64,000 bases of DNA from a virus, in the IMG/VR virus record IMGVR_UViG_3300045988_113306; one strand, written 5' to 3'. The position numbers and the translations under genes were made by a program. Under the pieces are notes generated by a model. The model was not told where the DNA came from and searched no databases. It saw only the letters and a list, made by a program, of their open reading frames with translations. Of the stretch, positions 3,146-54,061 are shown in pieces. The stretch's first letter is position 1. Each line of letters opens with the position of its first letter.

Positions 3146-3889
3146 ATGGCAAATATTACAAAAATGGCCGGTGGATATTTTGGCGGGCGTTCACTCGTTC
3201 AGCAAACCGGCACTAAAGGCGGTGCTCGTCACGTCTTTGTAAAATTCGACGACATAAAGGACGACCTTGTGTTCCCGACATTCGGTGGACAGGTCATGAA
3301 TCCGTTTCCCGGCGCTGCCAAGTTATTCGCTGGCGACCTAATGGAATTCCGAACTGAAACCGACGGACTTAAAGGCAAGGTTTGGATTCTCAAGACCTAT
3401 GAGGTCGTTTCCGCTTCCGGCACAACCGTGAACATCGTTCGCGACGGTTATCATCACATCCCATTTGTAAGCGATGTTCTCACAGTGGCTCCCGAAACCA
3501 TCGGCGGAACTGGCGCAGCAATGACAGTCGTAGCAGTCACCAAGACCAAGGTAGACACTCAGGATGTATGGGCGTTGACACTTTCCGCAGCTCCCACAAC
3601 CGCTCCCGCAAAGGGCGACATCCTCGTTGAGTGCGACTCAACAGGCAAGATGTTGGTGAAAAACATAAACGCTTGTGCTGCATGGGATTATGACTTTATG
3701 TGGTCGCAAGCCGCCGACCCGACCGACGAGGATGAGTTTGAGGCCGCCCGCTACTTCCTCACTCCGACTCTCCGTGGAACAATTTATGAGTCAAGAATGA
3801 GCCCCATGCCTAAATGCGTGAAGGATTTGAACATTTCCAACATCAACGGATGGTTCCGCTTCGACGCGCTTAACAAACCGAATGTTTAA
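3146..3889 (+). CDS. hypothetical virion-module protein, 247 aa
   Basis: Track ORF 3089..3889; ATG at 3146 (MANITKMAGG) follows the previous stop; sits between scaffold-like and capsid-like genes. Confidence 0.5.
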   Translation: MANITKMAGGYFGGRSLVQQTGTKGGARHVFVKFDDIKDDLVFPTFGGQVMNPFPGAAKLFAGDLMEFRTETDGLKGKVWILKTYEVVSASGTTVNIVRDGYHHIPFVSDVLTVAPETIGGTGAAMTVVAVTKTKVDTQDVWALTLSAAPTTAPAKGDILVECDSTGKMLVKNINACAAWDYDFMWSQAADPTDEDEFEAARYFLTPTLRGTIYESRMSPMPKCVKDLNISNINGWFRFDALNKPNV

Positions 3890-18882: not shown

Positions 18883-19846
18883 TGAAATCGAATAAGTTTT
18901 TTGGCTTCTCGTCGGGTAAATATCTGCCTACAGTAGCAAACATCTTGCGTAATGCCTCCCGATAAGTGACGCCGTTGTTAGTATAATTCATTACCATATT
19001 ATAGTACTTCGGCTCAAGCTGATAAAGCAAATTAAAACGGTCATCGTCTTTGAACACACTTCCGTATGAACAAGCGACACAACCAGTCCTTTTCGCCCCT
19101 TTGTAGTATATGTCTGGAATTTCAACATTGAATCTTTTAATATAATTCCAAATGTCTTGTTCTGTCCATATTGAGAGTGGCATAGATACATTCTCCCTCC
19201 TCCCCCCATTTTCAGCGAACACATTGCATCCGCCATTACGGATATATTGTGTTTCACGTAATAAGCTTTCACTTGCCATAGTGCCTAATATCATGCTTCG
19301 TCCCGTTTCCTTGCAAAATTTGGCTACAGGGCGTTTCTTCATGTAGTCACAGCAACAGTTGTCAATGTTGTAAGGCTCATCTATCAAATACATCCAACGT
19401 TTGTTTAGCTTGAACATTGATTTGGGATTTTCAATACCCAACGCCTTTCTTGCCTTTACAGAGTTAGGGTTGACTTTCACGGCGTGGACATTTTCACTGA
19501 CTTCTTTTGAAACCATAGGGAACGCCAATGAGTAAATTTGGCGTGCATTCATTTTTGGGCGCAACAAAACAACGTTGCCGCCATCTCGCTTGTATTTGTT
19601 CACAAATTGGATGATTGAGGGCCATTCCATAGTTGTATTGCAAAAAACAGCGAGAATATCAGGGAACAATCGCTTGCAGAGATGGAGAAGGACAGTTGAA
19701 TCCTTACCGCCACTCCAAGAAACAGCGACCTTATCAACGCCACCGAGTTTGCTTACAAATGATTCTATGGTAGCGATTGAGTGGTCTATCTTTTGTTCCA
19801 ACGACCATCCTTGGCGTTCTCTAAGTTCCTCTCTTGTCATCATCAT
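18860..19846 (-). CDS. PAPS reductase / PP-loop ATP-pyrophosphatase family protein (copy 1)
   Basis: SWSGGKDS PP-loop, C-terminal GCVAC cysteine pair; 328 aa. Confidence 0.7.
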   Translation of the reverse strand: MMMTREELRERQGWSLEQKIDHSIATIESFVSKLGGVDKVAVSWSGGKDSTVLLHLCKRLFPDILAVFCNTTMEWPSIIQFVNKYKRDGGNVVLLRPKMNARQIYSLAFPMVSKEVSENVHAVKVNPNSVKARKALGIENPKSMFKLNKRWMYLIDEPYNIDNCCCDYMKKRPVAKFCKETGRSMILGTMASESLLRETQYIRNGGCNVFAENGGRRENVSMPLSIWTEQDIWNYIKRFNVEIPDIYYKGAKRTGCVACSYGSVFKDDDRFNLLYQLEPKYYNMVMNYTNNGVTYREALRKMFATVGRYLPDEKPKNLFDFNEQTTTT

Positions 19847-31859: not shown

Positions 31860-32302
31860 TCACTTTGGAAGTGTCATCTTCGCAACAAATCCATAGCAAC
31901 TTGACAACCAATGACTCTCATTGTCAAACTCTCCGCCAGTAGTAGGCACTTCCTCCTCATTATTGACAAGAATTACATTATTCAAATAATAATATTTGGT
32001 GAAATTGAATATCATATATCCGACAAGGCCATCATTATCGCCAAATTCCATGTAATCAAAGAGAACGGGTTCTTGATTATAGTTACGACCTCTGCTCCAC
32101 ATTTGTGAAGATTCAACAATACTTGGCGCAACAATGAATAGTTCAAATTCTTCCGACGGCTCGTCACGCACTTTTCTCAAATAAAGACTTCTGCTGTTAA
32201 GCGGTATTTTATCAACTACGTCACCCCCCCCTCGGAAGAGCCACCGGCCTGTAAATCAGCAACATGCTCGGTGACTAACTTGTCTAATTTATACTTGTTC
32301 AT
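31860..32302 (-). pseudogene. hypothetical ORF interrupted at a G8 (plus-strand C8) tract
   Basis: ATG 32302 gives MNKYKLDKLVTEHVADLQAGGSSEGGVT*; a 9-nt tract would fuse it to track ORF 31860..32180. Confidence 0.5.
32224..32231. repeat. C8 homopolymer tract
   Basis: Counted directly in the sequence. Confidence 0.95.
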
Positions 32303-33228: not shown

Positions 33229-33697
33229 CGATTTCAACAAAAATATGCCAAAAAACATGAGATAAGACAGCAGAATCTCACACTCCCGACCTTATTTCCA
33301 AGGTTTCCCCGCCATTATATAACGTATATTAGTACCCCATCCTAACATAGAAACACTATACTATGTATATACTATATATAAAGAAAAGAATAACTAAAGT
33401 TATTCTCAAAGAAGTGAAACTCCCCTCACAGCACGGCAATTGTTTGGAGTTGTCGACGCCTGAAAGGCACAAGACGAATCCAAGCCTTTGCCAGTGCGAC
33501 CCCAACGCCACACATAAAAAACGTGCATCATATTCTCATACAATGCACGCCATCCAAAAAGTTAACTTACCAATGCAATTTGAAACAAAAAACCAATCAT
33601 TGCTCGAACACAAAGGTAACACTTCCTGAACGAAAATAAAAAAAATAAAAATAAAAAATTTCGAGATGAGGTTGGGTGCAGCCAAAATGGCTATACA

Positions 33698-33705
33698 GGG
33701 GGGGG
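33698..33705. repeat. G8 homopolymer tract in non-coding DNA
   Basis: Counted directly. Confidence 0.95.
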
Positions 33706-43737: not shown

Positions 43738-44013
43738 ATGGGCAAGGAAGTAACCCCCGACGATTCAAGCGACCTCAAAAGCAGCATGGATGTATTGAAG
43801 CAGCTGGAAGCCAAACGCAACACAAAGATAAGGCAAGCCGTCAGCGCATTGGCAAAGGCCATATACGGAGTCCACTTGGACGGCATGGATGTTTCCATCA
43901 AACACAATCGCAAAGGATTCACGGTGGAGATAGCGACCGACCTTGACAGCGGCATAGAACGCCTCAGGGAAAATTTGAAAGTATTGATGTTTAACTATTT
44001 TGACAATAAATAA
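43738..44013 (+). CDS. small hypothetical protein, 91 aa
   Basis: Track ORF. Confidence 0.5.
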   Translation: MGKEVTPDDSSDLKSSMDVLKQLEAKRNTKIRQAVSALAKAIYGVHLDGMDVSIKHNRKGFTVEIATDLDSGIERLRENLKVLMFNYFDNK

Positions 44014-44017
44014 AACA

Positions 44018-44809
44018 ATGGCAACGTATGCGTATCTAAGGTATTCAACAAATTTGCAAGACGAGGCACAACAGTTGAATACGATAACAAACTACCTCAA
44101 GCAAAAAGGCATGACACTCGATAGAACTTATATGGATGAGGGCATATCGGGCGGTATAAGCTATACAAAACGTAATCTCTATGACTTATGCAAGGCTATC
44201 AAGCAAGGCGATACCGTGGTCGTGAGCGAAGTTAGCCGATTGACACGTTCAGGAATATCGGAGCTTTCGGAAATCATAGAGAAGCATTTCAAGACCAATA
44301 AACTTAGGCTTATTATATGTAATGTGGGCCTTGACATTGACTGCTCTGACATAAATCCCATGACGGAGCTACAGCTTGCAATGCTTGCCACTTTTGCCAA
44401 AATAGAGCGTAATTTGATTAAAGAGCGCACCAAATCTGCTCTTGATGTGCGTAAGCAAAAACTCGCCAACGGTGAAACTCTAATCAGCAAGGCTGGAAGA
44501 GCATACACCAAGTTAGGCCGACAGGACGACAATGCAGGCACCGCGTGGGACAAGGCATTGAACAACTCCATCGAAACCAATAAGAAAAAAGCGCAGGACA
44601 ACGAGAACAACATACGCTTCGCCCGATGGCTCGGCGTGTGGGAATCCAAGAACGGCGTCGTTGACCGACATACCGACCTCGCCCCAATTCTCGCCGAGGT
44701 CAGCGCTTTGGGCCTAAAGACATCATCCGGCATGGAGTTCAAAAAAGAATCCCTAAGACAGATGATATATCGAACCCACGAAAGAAAATTGCAAACAATC
44801 AACGCATAA
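44018..44809 (+). CDS. serine recombinase (resolvase/invertase catalytic domain), 263 aa
   Basis: MATYAYLRYSTNLQDEAQQ (catalytic Ser context), GISGG, VVSEVSRLTRS, ERNLIKERTKSAL; ATG at 44018. Confidence 0.7.
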   Translation: MATYAYLRYSTNLQDEAQQLNTITNYLKQKGMTLDRTYMDEGISGGISYTKRNLYDLCKAIKQGDTVVVSEVSRLTRSGISELSEIIEKHFKTNKLRLIICNVGLDIDCSDINPMTELQLAMLATFAKIERNLIKERTKSALDVRKQKLANGETLISKAGRAYTKLGRQDDNAGTAWDKALNNSIETNKKKAQDNENNIRFARWLGVWESKNGVVDRHTDLAPILAEVSALGLKTSSGMEFKKESLRQMIYRTHERKLQTINA

Positions 44810-44877: not shown

Positions 44878-45196
44878 ATGGAAACAACAACCACTACTAC
44901 CAAGGTCTGCTCCAAGTGCGGACAGGAACTTCCCTTAACCAGCTTCTACACCAAAAAAGGAACTAAGGACGGCTTGCAATATTGGTGCAAGGAATGTCAG
45001 GGTAAGATGTCTAAGAAGTATTACAAGGCCAAAACTATCACCCCCCCCCCATTCTGAGTTGTCGAATCCCGAACTCGCAAGCCTACAGCCACGTGAAATC
45101 ATTGCACAAATTAAGACTTTAATAAAGGAGCTTCGCGCCCGTGGATATACCTACGAGGAAGGCAAGCTGTCATATACTCAAACAATCAAACTTTAA
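44878..45196 (+). pseudogene. zinc-ribbon ORF interrupted at a C10 tract
   Basis: METTTTTTKVCSKCGQELPL...YWCKECQGKMSKKYYKAKTITPPPF*; with C9 it would continue ..HSELSNPELASLQPREIIAQIKTLIKELRARGYTYEEGKL.. to 45196. Confidence 0.55.
45041..45050. repeat. C10 homopolymer tract
   Basis: Counted directly. Confidence 0.95.
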
Positions 45197-47197: not shown

Positions 47198-47485
47198 ATG
47201 CTAAACAAAAAAGTAATTATTCGTGGTGACCGTTCTGGCGTGTTCTTTGGCACCCTTGCCGAAAAGAATGGTCAAGAAGTCAAATTAACCAATTGTCGCC
47301 GACTGTGGTATTGGAGCGGCGCTGCATCACTCTCGCAGCTTGCCGTGGACGGTGTTGCTAATCCTGACGGATGTAAGTTTACAGTGTCGGTTGACGAGAT
47401 TGTCATTCTTGACGCAATCGAAATCATTCCCTGCACCGTTAAGGCCGTAAAATCAATAACGTCAACACGCGAATGGAGAATTTAG
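47198..47485 (+). CDS. hypothetical protein, 95 aa
   Basis: Track ORF. Confidence 0.5.
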   Translation: MLNKKVIIRGDRSGVFFGTLAEKNGQEVKLTNCRRLWYWSGAASLSQLAVDGVANPDGCKFTVSVDEIVILDAIEIIPCTVKAVKSITSTREWRI

Positions 47486-48183
47486 AAAACAAGATAAGGA
47501 ACTTCTTATCTATAGGCTCCGGCTCCGGCTCCGGCGACGGCTCCGGCTCCGGCGACGGCGACGGCGACGGCGACGGCTCCGGCTCCGGCGACGGCTACGG
47601 CTACGGCTACGGCTACGGCTCCGGCGACGGCTACGGCTACGGCGACGGCACCGGCTCCGGCGACGGCTACGGCTCCGGCTACGGCTACGGCTCCGGCGAC
47701 GGCTCCGGCTCCGGCATGTTGAAAGAATGGATGGGGCAACATGTCTATTCGATAGATGGTGTTGCGACATTGATTGATTCAGTCCACGGCAACTATGCTA
47801 AAGGTCGCATATTAAAAAAAGACCTCACTACTGAATCGTGTTTCATCGCTAAGGTTGAGGGCAGATACTTCGCCCACGGCGAAACATTGCGTGAGGCGAT
47901 GGCTGATGCGATGAACAAGGCGTTTGAAGATTTGCCTGAAGGCGAGCGTATAGATAAGTTTGTGGCAGAATATCCCGATAAGAATATAGTCGCCAAGAAT
48001 ACGGATTTATTCGCTTGGCACAACCGATTGACAGGTTCGTGCGAGATGGGACGCCGTGCATTCGCTAAAGAACACGACATTGATGTTGAGAACGGTTTAA
48101 TGACCGTTGAAGAATTCATAAAGCTAACCATTGATTCTTATGGCGGCGAAACTATTGTGAAACTAAAAGAAAGATATGAGTAG
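47473..48183 (+). CDS. protein with N-terminal (Gly-X) repeat and globular C-terminal domain, 236 aa
   Basis: Track ORF; 67 residues of strict G-S/D/Y/T alternation, then an ordinary-looking 155-aa domain. Confidence 0.6.
   Translation: MENLENKIRNFLSIGSGSGSGDGSGSGDGDGDGDGSGSGDGYGYGYGYGSGDGYGYGDGTGSGDGYGSGYGYGSGDGSGSGMLKEWMGQHVYSIDGVATLIDSVHGNYAKGRILKKDLTTESCFIAKVEGRYFAHGETLREAMADAMNKAFEDLPEGERIDKFVAEYPDKNIVAKNTDLFAWHNRLTGSCEMGRRAFAKEHDIDVENGLMTVEEFIKLTIDSYGGETIVKLKERYE
47515..47715 (+). repeat. 201-nt hexanucleotide repeat GGC-(TCC/GAC/TAC/ACC)
   Basis: Every Gly codon is GGC and every X codon ends in C; read directly. Confidence 0.95.
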
Positions 48184-49734: not shown

Positions 49735-50019
49735 ATGGATATGATTCAGGTAAAGGACATGGTAACGCTGCGTCAAGTATCTGCGGAGCTTGTCACACGG
49801 ACAATCGGAGCAATCAGCGGATTTAACAGCCCCGCCGCCTACGACATCAACAATCACCTCGCTATCGCCAAGGCCATAGAGAAGTATATCAAGGGTGACG
49901 CTTCACTCCCCGAGATAGACAATCCTACCGAGCCGTGGAAGGAGATTATGGAGAAGATGCAGAGCAACTTCACGAAGTCCGCAGAGCCCAAGACACCAAA
50001 CTTTGAAGTAAAACAGTAA
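49735..50019 (+). CDS. hypothetical protein, 94 aa
   Basis: Track ORF. Confidence 0.5.
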   Translation: MDMIQVKDMVTLRQVSAELVTRTIGAISGFNSPAAYDINNHLAIAKAIEKYIKGDASLPEIDNPTEPWKEIMEKMQSNFTKSAEPKTPNFEVKQ

Positions 50020-50030
50020 CCAACTTAAAT

Positions 50031-50064
50031 CGGGGCGTGGAAATTGAGTACACGCCCCGTTTAT
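50031..50064 (+). terminator. terminator-like hairpin
   Basis: CGGGGCGTG/CACGCCCCG 9-bp stem followed by TTTATAAG (weak U-tract). Confidence 0.45.
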
Positions 50065-50076
50065 AAGACTTCAGTT

Positions 50077-50448
50077 ATGACAATGAACAGCATAGAGCAA
50101 TACCCTTTGGCGCAGCTAAAGGGCGCATACGAGGAGATATGCGAGGAATACCGCCGCCGCATCAACGAGCAATGGGACTTGGACATCAAAGATTCTTGGT
50201 GGATTCCCTCTGACCGTATAGGTATGACTCTTGCATTGTGCGACCTTGAATACTCTCTTGGCATGGAGGACGTAAGGCTTATGGTAGATTTGAATGTAAG
50301 TTACGAGGACTTCAACGAGTGGTGGAATCATTGTCTCGGTGATACCAAATATCATATCAACGCATTTAGCTGGTTCGTGAATGGAGCGAGACCTAAAGAC
50401 TTGAACAATGACCTCTATCCGCAAGACAAAGAAAGCGTTGAAGCGTGA
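50077..50448 (+). CDS. hypothetical protein, 123 aa
   Basis: Track ORF 50044..50448 shortened to ATG 50077. Confidence 0.5.
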   Translation: MTMNSIEQYPLAQLKGAYEEICEEYRRRINEQWDLDIKDSWWIPSDRIGMTLALCDLEYSLGMEDVRLMVDLNVSYEDFNEWWNHCLGDTKYHINAFSWFVNGARPKDLNNDLYPQDKESVEA

Positions 50449-50683
50449 GATACGACGCATTGAATCTCAAACGGATTATTCGTATCTTGGCGTGAACGAC
50501 AATCCCTTGCAAGAGTGCGCAACCGCATACACTAACGCATGGATTGTCGCTTTTAAGGAATCCGAATTAGTTTTTTTGATTGTGCGATGTCGCGTAAAGT
50601 CTTTTCATACAAAGATGATGCGTAAATTAAAGGCCATGCCCGAAAGTCCAAAGAAAGAACAAACAGCAAAACAGACAATATGA
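50408..50683 (+). CDS. hypothetical protein, 91 aa
   Basis: Track ORF; 41-nt overlap with the previous gene. Confidence 0.4.
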   Translation: MTSIRKTKKALKREIRRIESQTDYSYLGVNDNPLQECATAYTNAWIVAFKESELVFLIVRCRVKSFHTKMMRKLKAMPESPKKEQTAKQTI

Positions 50684-51508
50684 AAATAGACATTACATTT
50701 GAACAAGCGTTGGCGAAAGCGTCACCATCCCTACGCGAGAAAATGATTAAGACCGTGGGGTTGCTTCGTAAGGCTGAAAAGTTAGCATTGAAATACGATG
50801 CTGATAACGGCTATTGGCTTGCGTTCTCTTGCGGCAAAGACAGCCAATGCTTATATCACATGACACAACTTGCATGCGTTAAGTTTAAGGCCCATTTCTC
50901 GCCAACATCATGCGACCCGCCGCAAGCGATAAGATTCTGTAAAACCAAATATCCCGAAGTGGAAATCATTCCGCCTAAGACGTCTATCTATAAAGCCGCA
51001 GTAGAGATGGCCTGTTTGCCTATGATGCGTGTAAGATACTGTTGTGCATTGTTCAAAGAGGGCCACGGTTCGGGGCGCGTAACCCTTACAGGTGTGCGTA
51101 AATCTGAATCTATCAAGCGTTCAAAACGACACGAGGTGGAAGTGTCTAACCACAAATTCAGTGGTGATTTAGACGATTTTACGGCGTATTCTGAAAAGCG
51201 CATAAAGAAAATCCTTAAACACGTCAATCAAGACCAATTCGGCGAAGCCAAGGAAACCGAAATAAGGTGCATATCGGGCAAGGACAAGATTATAGTCAAT
51301 CCTATAATCGACTGGACCGAATCGGATGTGTGGGAGTTCTTGAATAATGTCGTTGAAGTTCCCCATTGCGAGTTGTATGACCCTCCGTATAATAAGAAAC
51401 GAATCGGATGTATTCTTTGCCCGATGTCCTCTTACAAAAACAAGCTGCAAGATTGTGAAGACTATCCGCATATAAAAGCTAAATGGCTGAAAGTCATTAA
51501 ATTAATTC

Positions 51509-51516
51509 GGGGGGGG
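51509..51516. repeat. G8 homopolymer tract
   Basis: Counted directly. Confidence 0.95.
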
Positions 51517-51564
51517 CGAATCAGGCTCGAAGGAGTATGGGGCCTCAACATACCTACAACGTAT

Positions 51565-51575
51565 GGGGGGGGGGG
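51565..51575. repeat. G11 homopolymer tract
   Basis: Counted directly. Confidence 0.95.
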
Positions 51576-51802
51576 ATTTCCCGAATGGGCTTCCCAATAC
51601 ACGCGAAATCAGACGGAGCGGAATCGCATGAACAAAAGAATGGAGAGAATTATCCCTTTTGCGATAGCCCCGACATGGGGCTGACCGACGAAGAAAAAGA
51701 GGACTATATATGTGAAAAGATTTTTCAATGGTGGATAAGTGGCAAATCTTACGACAAGTGGTTTGCAGAAGAATTTCTACAACAAAAACTAAATTTTGAC
51801 GA

Positions 51803-52042
51803 ATGACACAAGAACAGTACGAAAGAGCGGAGTTAATAGCTCGCAAACTTCGCAATATGAACTTAGCGCTTGACGCTATGAAATCCCAATAGGACGTTAC
51901 TCTGACTATTGATTTGTACAGACATGAATATGATGTGTTCCCACAAAAAGTTGTTCTGTGTGACGATGGCGTGAATAATCTCATAAGAGAATATTTAACC
52001 AACCGTATCACCGAACTTGAAAAGGAATTTAAATGGCTATGA
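51803..52042 (+). pseudogene. small ORF with in-frame TAG
   Basis: MTQEQYERAELIARKLRNMNLALDAMKSQ-TAG(51890-51892)-DVTLTIDLYRHEYDVFPQKVVLCDDGVNNLIREYLTNRITELEKEFKWL*; no ATG in the second half. Confidence 0.4.
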
Positions 52043-52111
52043 CAAGAGACTATGTGAAAAATTGCGACGGGCGATAAGCAATTTCTTTTGACTAACTTAA
52101 AATCAAAGAGA

Positions 52112-52411
52112 ATGGCTACATTAATTCACGATAACATAATCCCGATGGTGGCGGAAGTCTACGGAGTGACTGTGGAGGACATACTCGGCAAGACACGGAA
52201 ACAGCCTATAGCCGAGGCAAGACAGATGGCGATGTATATCTATCGTTCTCACGCTCAATTTAAGTTCGATGCCATTGCGAATATTTTTGGACGTAAGCAT
52301 CCAACCGTTATAAGTGGGGTGCAATCAGCGTTAGCGTTAATCGACGTGGATAATACGACTAAACAGAAATACAATCAAATTCTCGTCAAACTATGCCCCA
52401 ATCTCAATTGA
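52112..52411 (+). CDS. stand-alone DnaA domain IV-like HTH protein, 99 aa
   Basis: VEDILGKTRKQPIAEARQMAMYIYRSH...FGRKHPTVISGV parallels the DnaA C-terminal DNA-binding domain. Confidence 0.6.
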   Translation: MATLIHDNIIPMVAEVYGVTVEDILGKTRKQPIAEARQMAMYIYRSHAQFKFDAIANIFGRKHPTVISGVQSALALIDVDNTTKQKYNQILVKLCPNLN

Positions 52412-53115
52412 CCGTATTGGCTTCGGGCAGTCAAGGCAACGGATATGTAATCAAATCAGACAATGAAGTGCTGATACTTGAAGCTGGCGTTCCGTTCAAG
52501 GAGTGTTCCAAATCACTCACCCACGACATCAGCCAAGTTAAGGCGGTGATATGCTCCCACGGGCATAAAGACCATTCAGCTTACATCAAACAATACCAAC
52601 AGCACGGCTTGACCGTATATTCCAACGCAGATGTCGCAAGCGACTTCGACGGAGTGATTGCGCTGGAGCCAATGAAAAAGTATCACCTCGGCGGCTTTAC
52701 GGTGACACCGCTTAGAGTACCGCACGGTGACTGCCCCAATTACGCCTATCATATCACACTACCCGACGGTCAGACATTGCTGTTCGCGACTGATTTGGAA
52801 TACTTCGGCTATGGGTTCAAGGGCATTAATCACCTCGCCATTGAATGTAATTATTCCGATGACATCCGCATTGACGCGATGCTCAACGGAGCGGAGCTGA
52901 GAAGCCAAAGTCGCAACCATCTGAGCTTGGACAAGTGCGTGGAGGTCATAAAACGCCTCAAATCGCCGTCTTTGTCCTCGGTGGTATTGTTGCACCTATC
53001 ACAGGGATTAGGTGACGCAGAGGGCTTTAAAAAGCGCATTTTCGACGAGTGCGGAATACGGGCCGAAGTGGCGGACAAAGGGACTGTGCATGTTTTGAAT
53101 AAAGACGAGTTTTAG
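52393..53115 (+). CDS. metallo-beta-lactamase fold hydrolase
   Basis: VICSHGHKDHS (HxHxDH) plus later conserved His and Asp residues; 240 aa. Confidence 0.65.
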   Translation: MPQSQLTVLASGSQGNGYVIKSDNEVLILEAGVPFKECSKSLTHDISQVKAVICSHGHKDHSAYIKQYQQHGLTVYSNADVASDFDGVIALEPMKKYHLGGFTVTPLRVPHGDCPNYAYHITLPDGQTLLFATDLEYFGYGFKGINHLAIECNYSDDIRIDAMLNGAELRSQSRNHLSLDKCVEVIKRLKSPSLSSVVLLHLSQGLGDAEGFKKRIFDECGIRAEVADKGTVHVLNKDEF

Positions 53116-53147
53116 CTTGCGTGTTTCAAGGATTATTGCTATCTTTG
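53116..53147 (+). promoter_or_regulatory. candidate promoter (CTTG-N20-TATCTTTG)
   Basis: -7 box 53140-53147; 119-nt leader to ATG 53267. Confidence 0.5.
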
Positions 53148-53186
53148 TGATGCGAATTAGTATGAATCAGTTTTATGAAATAAAAA

Positions 53187-53262
53187 GTCCGAGAAAGTGT
53201 TGGGTAGCGGAAACGCCCCAAGGTTGCATACTAACCTCGCAGCACTTCGCTCGGATTTTTTT
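53187..53262 (+). promoter_or_regulatory. terminator-like structure in the leader of KilA-N copy 2
   Basis: TCCGAG..AAGTG pairs with CACTT..CTCGGA around two small inner hairpins, followed by TTTTTTT 5 nt before the ATG. Confidence 0.5.
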
Positions 53263-53266
53263 AACT

Positions 53267-54061
53267 ATGAATGAAATTCAAGTTTTTAATTACAACGGTA
53301 GCGGAATCGCGTTTAGCACCGACAAGTGTGTAATGGTGTCAGCTACCGCAATGGCGAAACCTTTTGGTAAATCCCCGACTGATTGGCTTAAAACTCGCAG
53401 TGCCAAACAGTTTGTCAAAGAATTGGGCGAGTTGAAGAATATCAACTCGGTTGATTTAGTGAAAGTTACATACGGTGACAACGGCGGCACATGGATGCAC
53501 GAAGATGTCGCGTTGGAGTTCGCACGTTGGTTGGCCCCCAAGTTTGCCATTTGGTGCAACGACCGAATAAAAGAATTGCTAACATATAGCAAAACTAATA
53601 TGCCCGCTATCCCGCAGACTTTCGCTGAAGCGTTGCAGCTCGCCGCCGACCAAGCCAAGCAGATTGAACAACAGCAAGCACTCCTATTGGCACAAGGCGA
53701 GGCAATAGCCGAAAAGGACAAGGCTATATCGGAACTGCACGAAAAGACTTCTTACCTTGATAAAATCCTGCAAAGCAAAGAAACTATCACCACGACTCAA
53801 ATAGCTCAAGACTATGGAATGTCGGCGAAGAAATTCAATGTTGAGCTTCGCAACATGAAGATTCAACGCAAAGTGGGCGGTCAGTGGATTCTTTACTCTC
53901 CCTACAACACTATGGGTTATGTCCATTCCGAAACTTTTATCCCAGAAAGCTCCACCACAAGGAAAGTTGTTACCCTTTCTAAATGGACTCAAAAAGGGAG
54001 GCTGTTTTTGTATGAGGAGATGAAGAAACGCGACATCCTGCCGTTGATTGAACGCAGATAG
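53267..54061 (+). CDS. KilA-N domain / antirepressor (KilAC-like C-terminus), copy 2
   Basis: FNYNGSGIAF...KSPTDWLKT...GTWMHEDVALEFARWLAPKFAIWCNDRIKELL; ATG at 53267 (MNEIQVF). Confidence 0.7.
   Translation: MNEIQVFNYNGSGIAFSTDKCVMVSATAMAKPFGKSPTDWLKTRSAKQFVKELGELKNINSVDLVKVTYGDNGGTWMHEDVALEFARWLAPKFAIWCNDRIKELLTYSKTNMPAIPQTFAEALQLAADQAKQIEQQQALLLAQGEAIAEKDKAISELHEKTSYLDKILQSKETITTTQIAQDYGMSAKKFNVELRNMKIQRKVGGQWILYSPYNTMGYVHSETFIPESSTTRKVVTLSKWTQKGRLFLYEEMKKRDILPLIERR

Follow-up and report, generated by a model that had tools for sequence, protein, structure and literature searches.

The PAPS-reductase-like gene of the virus recorded in IMG/VR as IMGVR_UViG_3300045988_113306, analysed here within a stretch of 64,000 nucleotides (the window), most likely contains a phase-variable switch, borne by the phage and driven by slippage, through which a small C-terminal module (C-module) is gained or lost; the window copy of the gene is in the OFF state. 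Comparison of near-identical phages shows directly in the DNA that the tracts are polymorphic in length and that this puts the C-module into or out of frame; frequent, reversible switching and its maintenance by selection are inferences. The gene fits three of the criteria for a contingency locus, namely a slippage-prone G/C tract within an open reading frame, length variation among near-identical genomes, and ON and OFF frames, the last in terms of predicted proteins.

The gene contains a G8 run (51509-51516) and a G11 run (51565-51575) with a spacing of 48 nt, and an earlier note, made from the sequence alone, had claimed that a frame change at one of these two long runs interrupts it. This claim held, as did the positions and spacing of the runs, the AFSCGKDSQ PP-loop, the stop at 51684, the -1 frame, and the ATGA overlap with the following gene. 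The features of the locus are:

50680..51684, plus strand: open reading frame as read in the window, 334 aa, OFF allele; its PAPS-reductase-like domain runs into an out-of-frame tail (..GGGGFPEWASQYTRNQTERNRMNKRMERIIPFAIAPTWG*); identical in the independent assembly L001
50680..51513, plus strand: catalytic N-terminal domain (N-domain), aa 1-278, with PP-loop SCGKDS, CC...CxxC cysteine pattern and PAPS_reduct fold
51509..51516, plus strand: tract 1, G8, directly after the last N-domain helix (..KLIRGG)
51517..51564, plus strand: inter-tract segment, 48 nt, without a stop codon in any of the three frames
51565..51575, plus strand: tract 2, G11; in relatives G7AG, G8AG, G9AG or interrupted GGGGAGGGGAG
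51504..51806, plus strand: open stretch of the -1 frame, 303 nt, spanning both tracts and encoding the rest of the linker and the C-module
51634..51637, plus strand: A4 run, A5 in the intact relative L120 (375 aa); a third place able to restore the frame
51696..51803, plus strand: C-module in the -1 frame (..EDYICEKIFQWWISGKSYDKWFAEEFLQQKLNFDE); C-module HMM match of 60 bits, two helices predicted
51803..52042, plus strand: small downstream gene, its ATG overlapping the -1 frame stop as ATGA

Frame 0 of the gene stops at 51684, and the tail of the window allele consists of 57 non-native residues after ..KLIRGG. The -1 frame, which is frame 2 relative to 50680, has no stop codon between 51504, ahead of both runs, and its TGA at 51804-51806; its C-terminal end reads ...FQWWISGKSYDKWFAEEFLQQKLNFDE, and the ATGA overlap of this stop with the gene starting at 51803 marks the frame as the native terminal one. 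That downstream gene itself has an in-frame TAG at 51890-51892 (..DAMKSQ*DVTLTID..) where L120 has a Glu codon (..DAMKSQEDVTLTID..); this could be a nonsense mutation, or the TAG could be read through or recoded. The inter-tract segment also contains a G4 run at 51539-51542, which is G3 in two relatives (L002 and L116). When run lengths were varied in simulation, the window yielded only three product classes, of 315-317, 333-335 and 374-376 aa; one additional G in either tract gave an ORF of 375 aa, and the loss of two Gs gave 374 aa. The earlier note had predicted that one extra G would restore about 375 aa, and this held both in the simulation and in the intact homologues (373-375 aa, ~92% identity), which carry the C-terminus encoded by the -1 frame of the window. 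The interpretation would have been refuted if homologues really ended near 51684, and they do not.

Long G/C runs are more frequent in the window than expected by chance, since the pattern GGGGGGGG has 10 overlapping matches, corresponding to five separate G/C runs of at least 8 nt, against a mean of 0.59 in dinucleotide shuffles, none of which (0/100) reached 10. The G8/G11 state itself is not peculiar to one assembly; it was found identically in the independent assembly L001 (ENA ERZ1742687, contig of 82,769 nt), with the caveat that coverage of this contig was only ~12x. The 334-aa product is recorded on 4 contigs, and the G8/G11 state is common to four of the five recorded assemblies of this ~82.8-kb phage, so that it is not scrambled in every sample. 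A further protein, P0135 (316 aa, from a contig of 82,788 nt), matches the window protein residue for residue as far as tract 2; its indel is inferred from the protein only, as the DNA is not on record. A megablast search of positions 50000-53000 against 50,697 GenBank phage records gave no match and thus no annotated close relative there; exact-pattern scans of IMG/VR and JGI metagenomes for the sequences flanking the tracts also gave nothing, and the sample of the window lineage is therefore small.

The window gene is a member of the PAPS_reduct superfamily (PF01507), as shown by an HMM match above the gathering score (aa 46-248 of ORF 50680..51684, E=7e-15, 55.8 bits against a cut-off of 22.5) together with the PP-loop (motif SCGKDS at 50827); the N-domain HMM matched 50680-51513 with 508 bits. 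With the frame-corrected protein as query, 3,758 relatives were found; among these, P0001 (374 aa, 92% identity) and P0126, P0133 and P0136 (373-375 aa) all use the C-terminus of the window's -1 frame. In an AlphaFold2 model built for P0001 from 57 homologues (mean pLDDT 83, pTM 0.79), the N-domain is predicted with confidence (aa 1-277, pLDDT mostly >90), a linker at aa 281-324, within which both G runs fall, is predicted to be disordered (pLDDT <50), and the C-module has helices predicted at 336-353 and 357-366; mean pLDDT in blocks of 10 residues was 78, 94 and 92 over positions 331-360, and 76 over 361-370. Foldseek searches against the PDB returned APS/PAPS reductases, CysD, and the PAPS domain of FAD synthase (2goy, 7lhr, 1zun, 8rom), and nothing beyond this generic PAPS-reductase/PP-loop fold. 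None of Pfam, PHROGs and NCBIfam contains a model for the C-module; in a library-wide search it occurred only at the ends of proteins of the window's PAPS-reductase-like family or in short fragment ORFs.

The assignment in PHROGs is phrog_424, "phosphoadenosine phosphosulfate reductase". An identity as a CysH-type PAPS/APS reductase was considered and rejected; the scores are below the cut-offs (TIGR00434, 21 vs. 165 bits; TIGR02055, 20.9 vs. 235; NF002537, 21.8 vs. 154), and the C-terminal catalytic ECGLH motif is absent from the sequences that were read. The window family resembles PP-loop proteins of the CysH, CysD and DndC types (PF01507) in its PF01507 match, its PP-loop and its fold, but differs from them in the C-module (WWISGKSY..WFAE) and in lacking the CysH-type ECGLH motif. 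The CC...CxxC pattern is reminiscent of the Fe-S ligands found in assimilatory APS reductase. The title of the earlier note speaks of a second PAPS-reductase-like gene; ORF 44000-44806, considered as the first one, proved to be a serine recombinase. The only other PAPS-like gene in the window is a distant paralogue on the minus strand (~18998-19846, PP-loop SWSGGKDS), which matches the N-domain HMM with 17 and 7 bits and has no associated long homopolymer.

Evidence for the switch comes from near-identical genomes. In the relatives L002, L116/L117, L118 and L119, the N-domain (814 nt, >99% identical) shows 0-7 mismatches and not a single indel, and the indels are concentrated in a tract region of ~70 nt, with the following states:

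L002: tract 1 G7, middle run G3, tract 2 G9; ON, 374 aa
L116/L117: tract 1 GAG7A6, middle run G3, tract 2 G8; ON, 375 aa
L118: tract 1 G6, middle run G4, tract 2 G7; ON, 373 aa
L119: tract 1 G6, middle run G4, tract 2 G7; OFF, 315 aa

Tract 1 is thus G6, G7 or G8 in relatives that are at least 99% identical to one another. L118 and L119 have equal run lengths and are set apart by a single T, which L118 lacks, in the stretch from tract 1 to the middle run. The inter-tract segment is read in three different frames by the three ON proteins listed (ESDSTEYGPQHTYNVW, EKIRLDGVWASTYLQRM, ANQTRRRWGLNIPTTY). Another ON allele, L120 (375 aa), aligns co-linearly with the window but for an interruption of tract 2 (GGGGAGGGGAG) and for the run equivalent to 51634-51637, which is extended from A4 to A5. 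The earlier note had asked which of the two tracts carries the shift, and to this there is no single answer, because intact relatives read the linker in all three frames and L120 restores its frame at the A4/A5 run. Its suggestion that two tracts would allow several expression states held; the simulated product classes recur among the database members of the window's 90% identity clusters (315-317, 333-335 and 373-375 aa, as predicted proteins only), and the DNA varies at both runs.

A sister lineage provides a further comparison, with a C tract: C9 in L005, C10 in L110-L113 (ON, 383 aa) and C11 in L114-L115 (OFF, 298 aa); a C12 form is also known, as a protein. Over up to 6.9 kb (6,897 nt), these seven independent assemblies (NCBI, ENA, JGI) are free of mismatches, and their single gap is the tract. 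The C11 OFF product was found in 65 blocks of the collection, and the C10 ON product on 15 contigs. As a caveat, all sequences are consensus metagenome or MAG assemblies without read-level data, and Illumina calls are less reliable for runs of at least 10 nt; the differences among G6, G7 and G8, and the changes outside homopolymers, are unaffected by this limitation.

The same architecture extends across a subfamily of phages. Loci from IMG/VR (80) and GTDB (24) were surveyed by locating the N-domain and the C-module with HMMs in the three forward frames, and the frame of the C-module relative to the N-domain was distributed as follows:

Tract-bearing subfamily (close to the window; Bacteroidales-type phages), 57 loci: in frame 17; +2 26; +1 12; in frame with stops 2
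Tract-less subfamily (more distant), 48 loci: in frame 44; +2 1; +1 2; in frame with stops 1

OFF alleles are the majority, accounting for ~70% of the tract-bearing loci. The loci are phylogenetically related and many come from a single IMG dataset (3300045988), so that these counts are not independent. Contigs of family members were binned with Prevotella, Porphyromonadaceae and other Bacteroidales. Tract-bearing linkers hold 0, 1, 2, 3 or 4 tracts of at least 7 nt in 11, 23, 15, 3 and 1 cases, respectively, with tract lengths from G6 to G18 and a strong coding-strand bias (66 G vs. 6 C tracts); tracts of at least 8 nt occur at 4.0 per kb in the linker vs. 0.087 per kb in the flanks. A G/C run of at least 6 nt lies within 21 nt of the N-domain end in 36 of 53 distinct tract-bearing linkers, the position of tract 1 is kept across relatives at 50-60% identity, and in ~29 of 40 out-of-frame loci a tract of at least 7 nt falls inside the overlap of two ORFs. 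Some out-of-frame loci have interrupted tracts and a C-module that is still intact (L016, L020, L023/L087, L026). The extreme among individual loci is L079 (IMGVR_UViG_3300012344_000020), which has G9, G13, G18 and C9 runs within 400 nt of linker after position 3343, and its C-module is in the +1 frame.

The C-module is conserved irrespective of its frame. Across 186 OFF-OFF pairs its dN/dS is 0.12, against 0.08 in ON-ON pairs, and OFF loci score no lower than ON loci with its HMM; the low dN/dS in OFF-OFF pairs shows that the out-of-frame genes are not decaying. Three-frame openness of the inter-tract segment, which compensating tracts predict, is likewise shown for the family. Between the first and last tract of 19 distinct loci (2,315 nt), 13 stop codons were counted with the three frames summed, compared to 112+-8 expected from mononucleotide shuffles and 78.6+-6 from dinucleotide shuffles (minimum 61 in 500); N-domain segments of equal length have 70. 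Tract-less linkers have 233 stops vs. 322 expected, a depletion that corresponds to one constrained frame only. The depletion in all three frames implies that all inter-tract frames have been exposed to translation. Evidence for a selectable consequence is indirect and consists of the dN/dS values of 0.08-0.12, the stop depletion, and the stable position of tract 1; no phenotype is known.

The proposed mechanism would operate on a protein of two modules, the PP-loop domain (aa 1-278) and a two-helix C-module of ~36-45 aa, joined by a disordered linker. In this view, the G tracts in the linker lengthen and shorten in the DNA much more quickly than neighbouring point substitutions accumulate, most likely by slipped-strand mispairing in replication; each change of 1 nt would shift the frame 3' of the tract, and the summed tract lengths would set the product. 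The predicted products are an ON form of 374-376 aa with the C-module, an OFF form of 315-317 aa in one wrong frame, and an OFF form of 333-335 aa in the other. The window copy (G8, G4, G11) would be an OFF allele one nucleotide short of in-frame, convertible to ON by the gain of one or the loss of two nucleotides at either tract, or by the gain of one at the A4 run. Since stops are kept out of all three frames of the inter-tract segment, tract 2 could compensate for a shift at tract 1, which would produce ON alleles with differing linker peptides. Replication slippage as the cause, frequent and reversible switching within populations, and the upkeep of the locus as a contingency switch all remain inferences, and the benefit to the phage is unknown.

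Several observations speak against this model. The OFF majority, and a C11 OFF form recorded far more often than the C10 ON form, are odd for a module so strongly constrained by purifying selection, except if the OFF state is frequently advantageous or some full-length protein is still made from OFF alleles. The out-of-frame loci with interrupted tracts and an intact C-module, and the sharing of the G8/G11 state by four of the five assemblies of the ~82.8-kb phage, also weigh against it. The preference for G over C on the coding strand is not predicted by a purely DNA-level mechanism; glycine may simply be a better linker residue than proline, and the bias would also fit a role at the RNA level.

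Among the rival explanations, the one that survives best holds that RNA polymerase slippage or ribosomal frameshifting on G8-G11 yields some full-length protein from any DNA frame, with tract length drifting near-neutrally and both isoforms always being made. This rescue is unlikely, is not excluded, and can coexist with the switch; the earlier note had raised slippage on the G runs as an alternative, and in its unprogrammed form, at the RNA or ribosome level, it is still possible. In its favour, the frame states are spread nearly evenly over the three frames without an in-frame excess (17/26/12), OFF is dominant while the C-module is under purifying selection, the tracts have the coding-strand bias of 66 G to 6 C, and a three-frame-open linker would serve rescue at either tract; a precedent exists in the low-level compensatory frameshifting on a G run of herpesvirus thymidine kinase (PMC5009743). 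Against it, efficient slippage of bacterial RNA polymerase has been described at runs of 9 A or T, whereas other sequences need context features (PMC5009743), and no documentation for G runs was found in the literature searched. No stimulatory RNA structure 3' of either tract stands out in the window, the only sequence evaluated in this way (z of -0.3, +0.9, -1.2 and -1.4 for 51517-51564, 51576-51640, 51576-51700 and 51500-51600, respectively), the arrangement is not fixed out-of-frame, unlike in known programmed cases, and DNA-level variation is directly observed and suffices to produce ON alleles.

Even less probable, though again not excluded, is a split-gene explanation in which the C-module of OFF alleles is made as a separate protein, for instance one of 89 aa starting at ATG 51537, and acts in trans, so that fused and split forms are functionally equivalent. 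The -1 frame does have this ATG between the tracts, and linker-plus-C-module ORFs of 40-150 aa are called often (167 matches at E<=0.001, most of the 150 listed being short); separate translation would explain why the C-module is retained in OFF alleles, including those locked OFF by interrupted tracts. The upstream ORF, however, stops 147 nt past ATG 51537, which rules out coupling of termination and reinitiation; the position of the -1 frame start is not conserved among relatives, and the fragments begin at arbitrary points. Separate translation, moreover, needs no three-frame depletion of inter-tract stops, and the tract-less sister subfamily is always fused. It is possible that rescue and separate translation together help to explain the OFF majority, the out-of-frame loci with interrupted tracts noted above, and the preference for G.

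A sequencing or assembly artefact, in which the true gene is in frame and the lengths of the G runs are miscalled, is all but excluded. Homopolymers of at least 10 nt are error-prone, the data are all metagenome assemblies, and the coverage of L001 is low (~12x); but the same G8/G11 state appears in at least 2 records and its product on 4 contigs, ~70% of the 57 tract-bearing loci are out of frame across many studies and assemblers vs. 4 of the 48 tract-less loci, the differences include G6/G7/G8 runs and indels outside homopolymers, and miscalls cannot produce the depletion of inter-tract stops. There is also hardly any room left for a decaying pseudogene, in which the C-terminal part would be unused and the frameshift inactivating; the 57 non-native residues of the window tail and the commonness of OFF alleles would fit, but the C-module has a dN/dS of 0.12 in OFF-OFF pairs and OFF scores as high as ON scores, the -1 frame runs on for 303 nt without a stop up to the ATGA overlap, and near-identical ON alleles exist. 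A single fixed programmed ribosomal frameshift is rejected as well (the earlier note had named ribosomal frameshifting on G runs as a possibility), as relatives occur in all three frame relations (17 in frame, 26 +2, 12 +1), the tracts vary in number and length, and the window shows no conspicuous RNA structure 3' of the tracts.

Other tracts and neighbouring genes of the window were also inspected. A C10 run at 45041-45050 splits a small zinc-ribbon-like gene (ORF 44878..45057, continuing to 45196), which reads METTTTTTKVCSKCGQ...KTITPPPF* in one frame and PPPHSELSNPELASLQPREIIAQIKTLIKELRARGYTYEEGKLSYTQTIKL* in the next; it appears to be a second tract-interrupted gene of the same phage, and the fused protein of 106 aa has no Pfam match. 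A minus-strand G8 run at 32224-32231 seems to divide a short ORF of that strand (MNKYKLDKLVTEHVADLQAGGSSEGG..) from the ORF 31860..32180 in another frame, and a G/C run of 8 nt at 33698-33705 lies in an AT-rich, probably non-coding region near an A8 run at 33638. ORF 47473-48183 is a repeat-rich coding region with a long low-complexity (GS/GD/GY)n N-terminus (SGSGSGDGSGSGDGDGDGDGSGSGDGYGYGYGYGSGDGYGYGDG...). Elsewhere in the family, the ~5-kb flanks of tract-bearing loci (L003-L061) contain G/C runs of at least 8 nt at about ten times the chance frequency, and one clade has a recurrent in-frame G8 run ~125 nt into the PAPS-like gene (example flank runs are at 2625 in L042 and in L049/L050/L060, and at 2081 in L061); tract-bearing phages appear to hold several such tracts per genome. 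The locus is adjoined by a metallo-beta-lactamase-fold gene at 52393-53115, the homologue of which in L001 and L119 has a precomputed Anti-Pycsar_Apyc1 match (PF23023; faint in L001, unmarked in L119) that may hint at an anti-defence neighbourhood; a DnaA C-terminal-like HTH protein (52088-52411) and a KilA-N/ANT protein (53117-54061) are encoded nearby.

The phase-variable switch proposed here belongs to a mechanism class, phase variation mediated by simple sequence repeats (SSRs), that is known in bacteria; new are the host group, the class of enzyme gene, the 3'-proximal site, and the linker that is open in three frames and has multiple tracts. Contingency loci of Neisseria, Haemophilus, Campylobacter and Helicobacter (e.g., PMC6321876, PMC5084427) share with the window gene a polymorphic G/C tract of at least 7 nt within an ORF and ON/OFF products; such loci typically carry a single tract close to the 5' end, and their OFF state is an early stop without protein. 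In contrast, the OFF state of the window gene keeps the catalytic domain and loses a module of ~45 aa, and several distinct ON forms exist. Among phages, hypermutable polyG tracts are known from the Campylobacter Fletchervirus phages (Sorensen et al., 2021, Cell Rep, cited in the review PMC11959909), where phage-encoded in-ORF poly-G runs likewise generate phenotypic variants of a phage protein by changing length. The Fletchervirus tracts occur in receptor-binding protein genes, and the host itself is rich in polyG contingency loci; the window family, unlike these, consists of non-structural PP-loop enzymes in Bacteroidales-type gut phages, with tracts in an interdomain linker near the 3' end that toggle the C-module only, and that are usually several, bracketing the three-frame-open segment. 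In herpesvirus thymidine kinase (PMC5009743), an indel in a G run similarly breaks the frame and low-level frameshifting gives some active product; for the window gene, such rescue may be suggested by analogy only, and the thymidine kinase case is a drug-selected "savior" mutation of a single gene vs. the conserved, family-wide architecture found here. According to a 2025 review (PMC11959909), phage polyG phase variation is exceptional and confined to receptor-binding proteins in Campylobacter phages. Our literature search (polyG tracts, contingency loci, phage and prophage PAPS reductases) turned up neither this tract architecture nor any homopolymer switching described for PAPS-reductase-like genes of phages or for Bacteroidales phages.

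A bolder reading, which falls just short of being the more probable one, would see in the locus a conserved and selected frame-switch cassette of Bacteroidales-type gut phages: 2-4 hypermutable G tracts would bracket a disordered linker open in three frames, and the phage population would stochastically attach or remove the C-module of an enzyme of the DNA- or nucleotide-modification type while varying the linker peptide; similar tracts in other genes, such as the C10 run at 45041, would then constitute a phage "phasome" outside the Campylobacter phages. The role of such a cassette could possibly be to balance enzyme activity against recognition by host defences.

For the annotation of these phages, the consequence is practical. 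With ~70% of the tract-bearing genes out of frame in public assemblies, the usual annotation of a truncated gene and an orphan small ORF is systematically misleading, and the tract locus offers a ready marker of phage population heterogeneity in metagenomes. If the phase-variable switch is real, a large family of gut phages uses repeat-based phase variation on an intracellular enzyme; this would point towards a function of the unannotated C-module and of the phage phrog_424 "PAPS reductase", widespread yet uncharacterised, that is beneficial in some conditions and costly in others.
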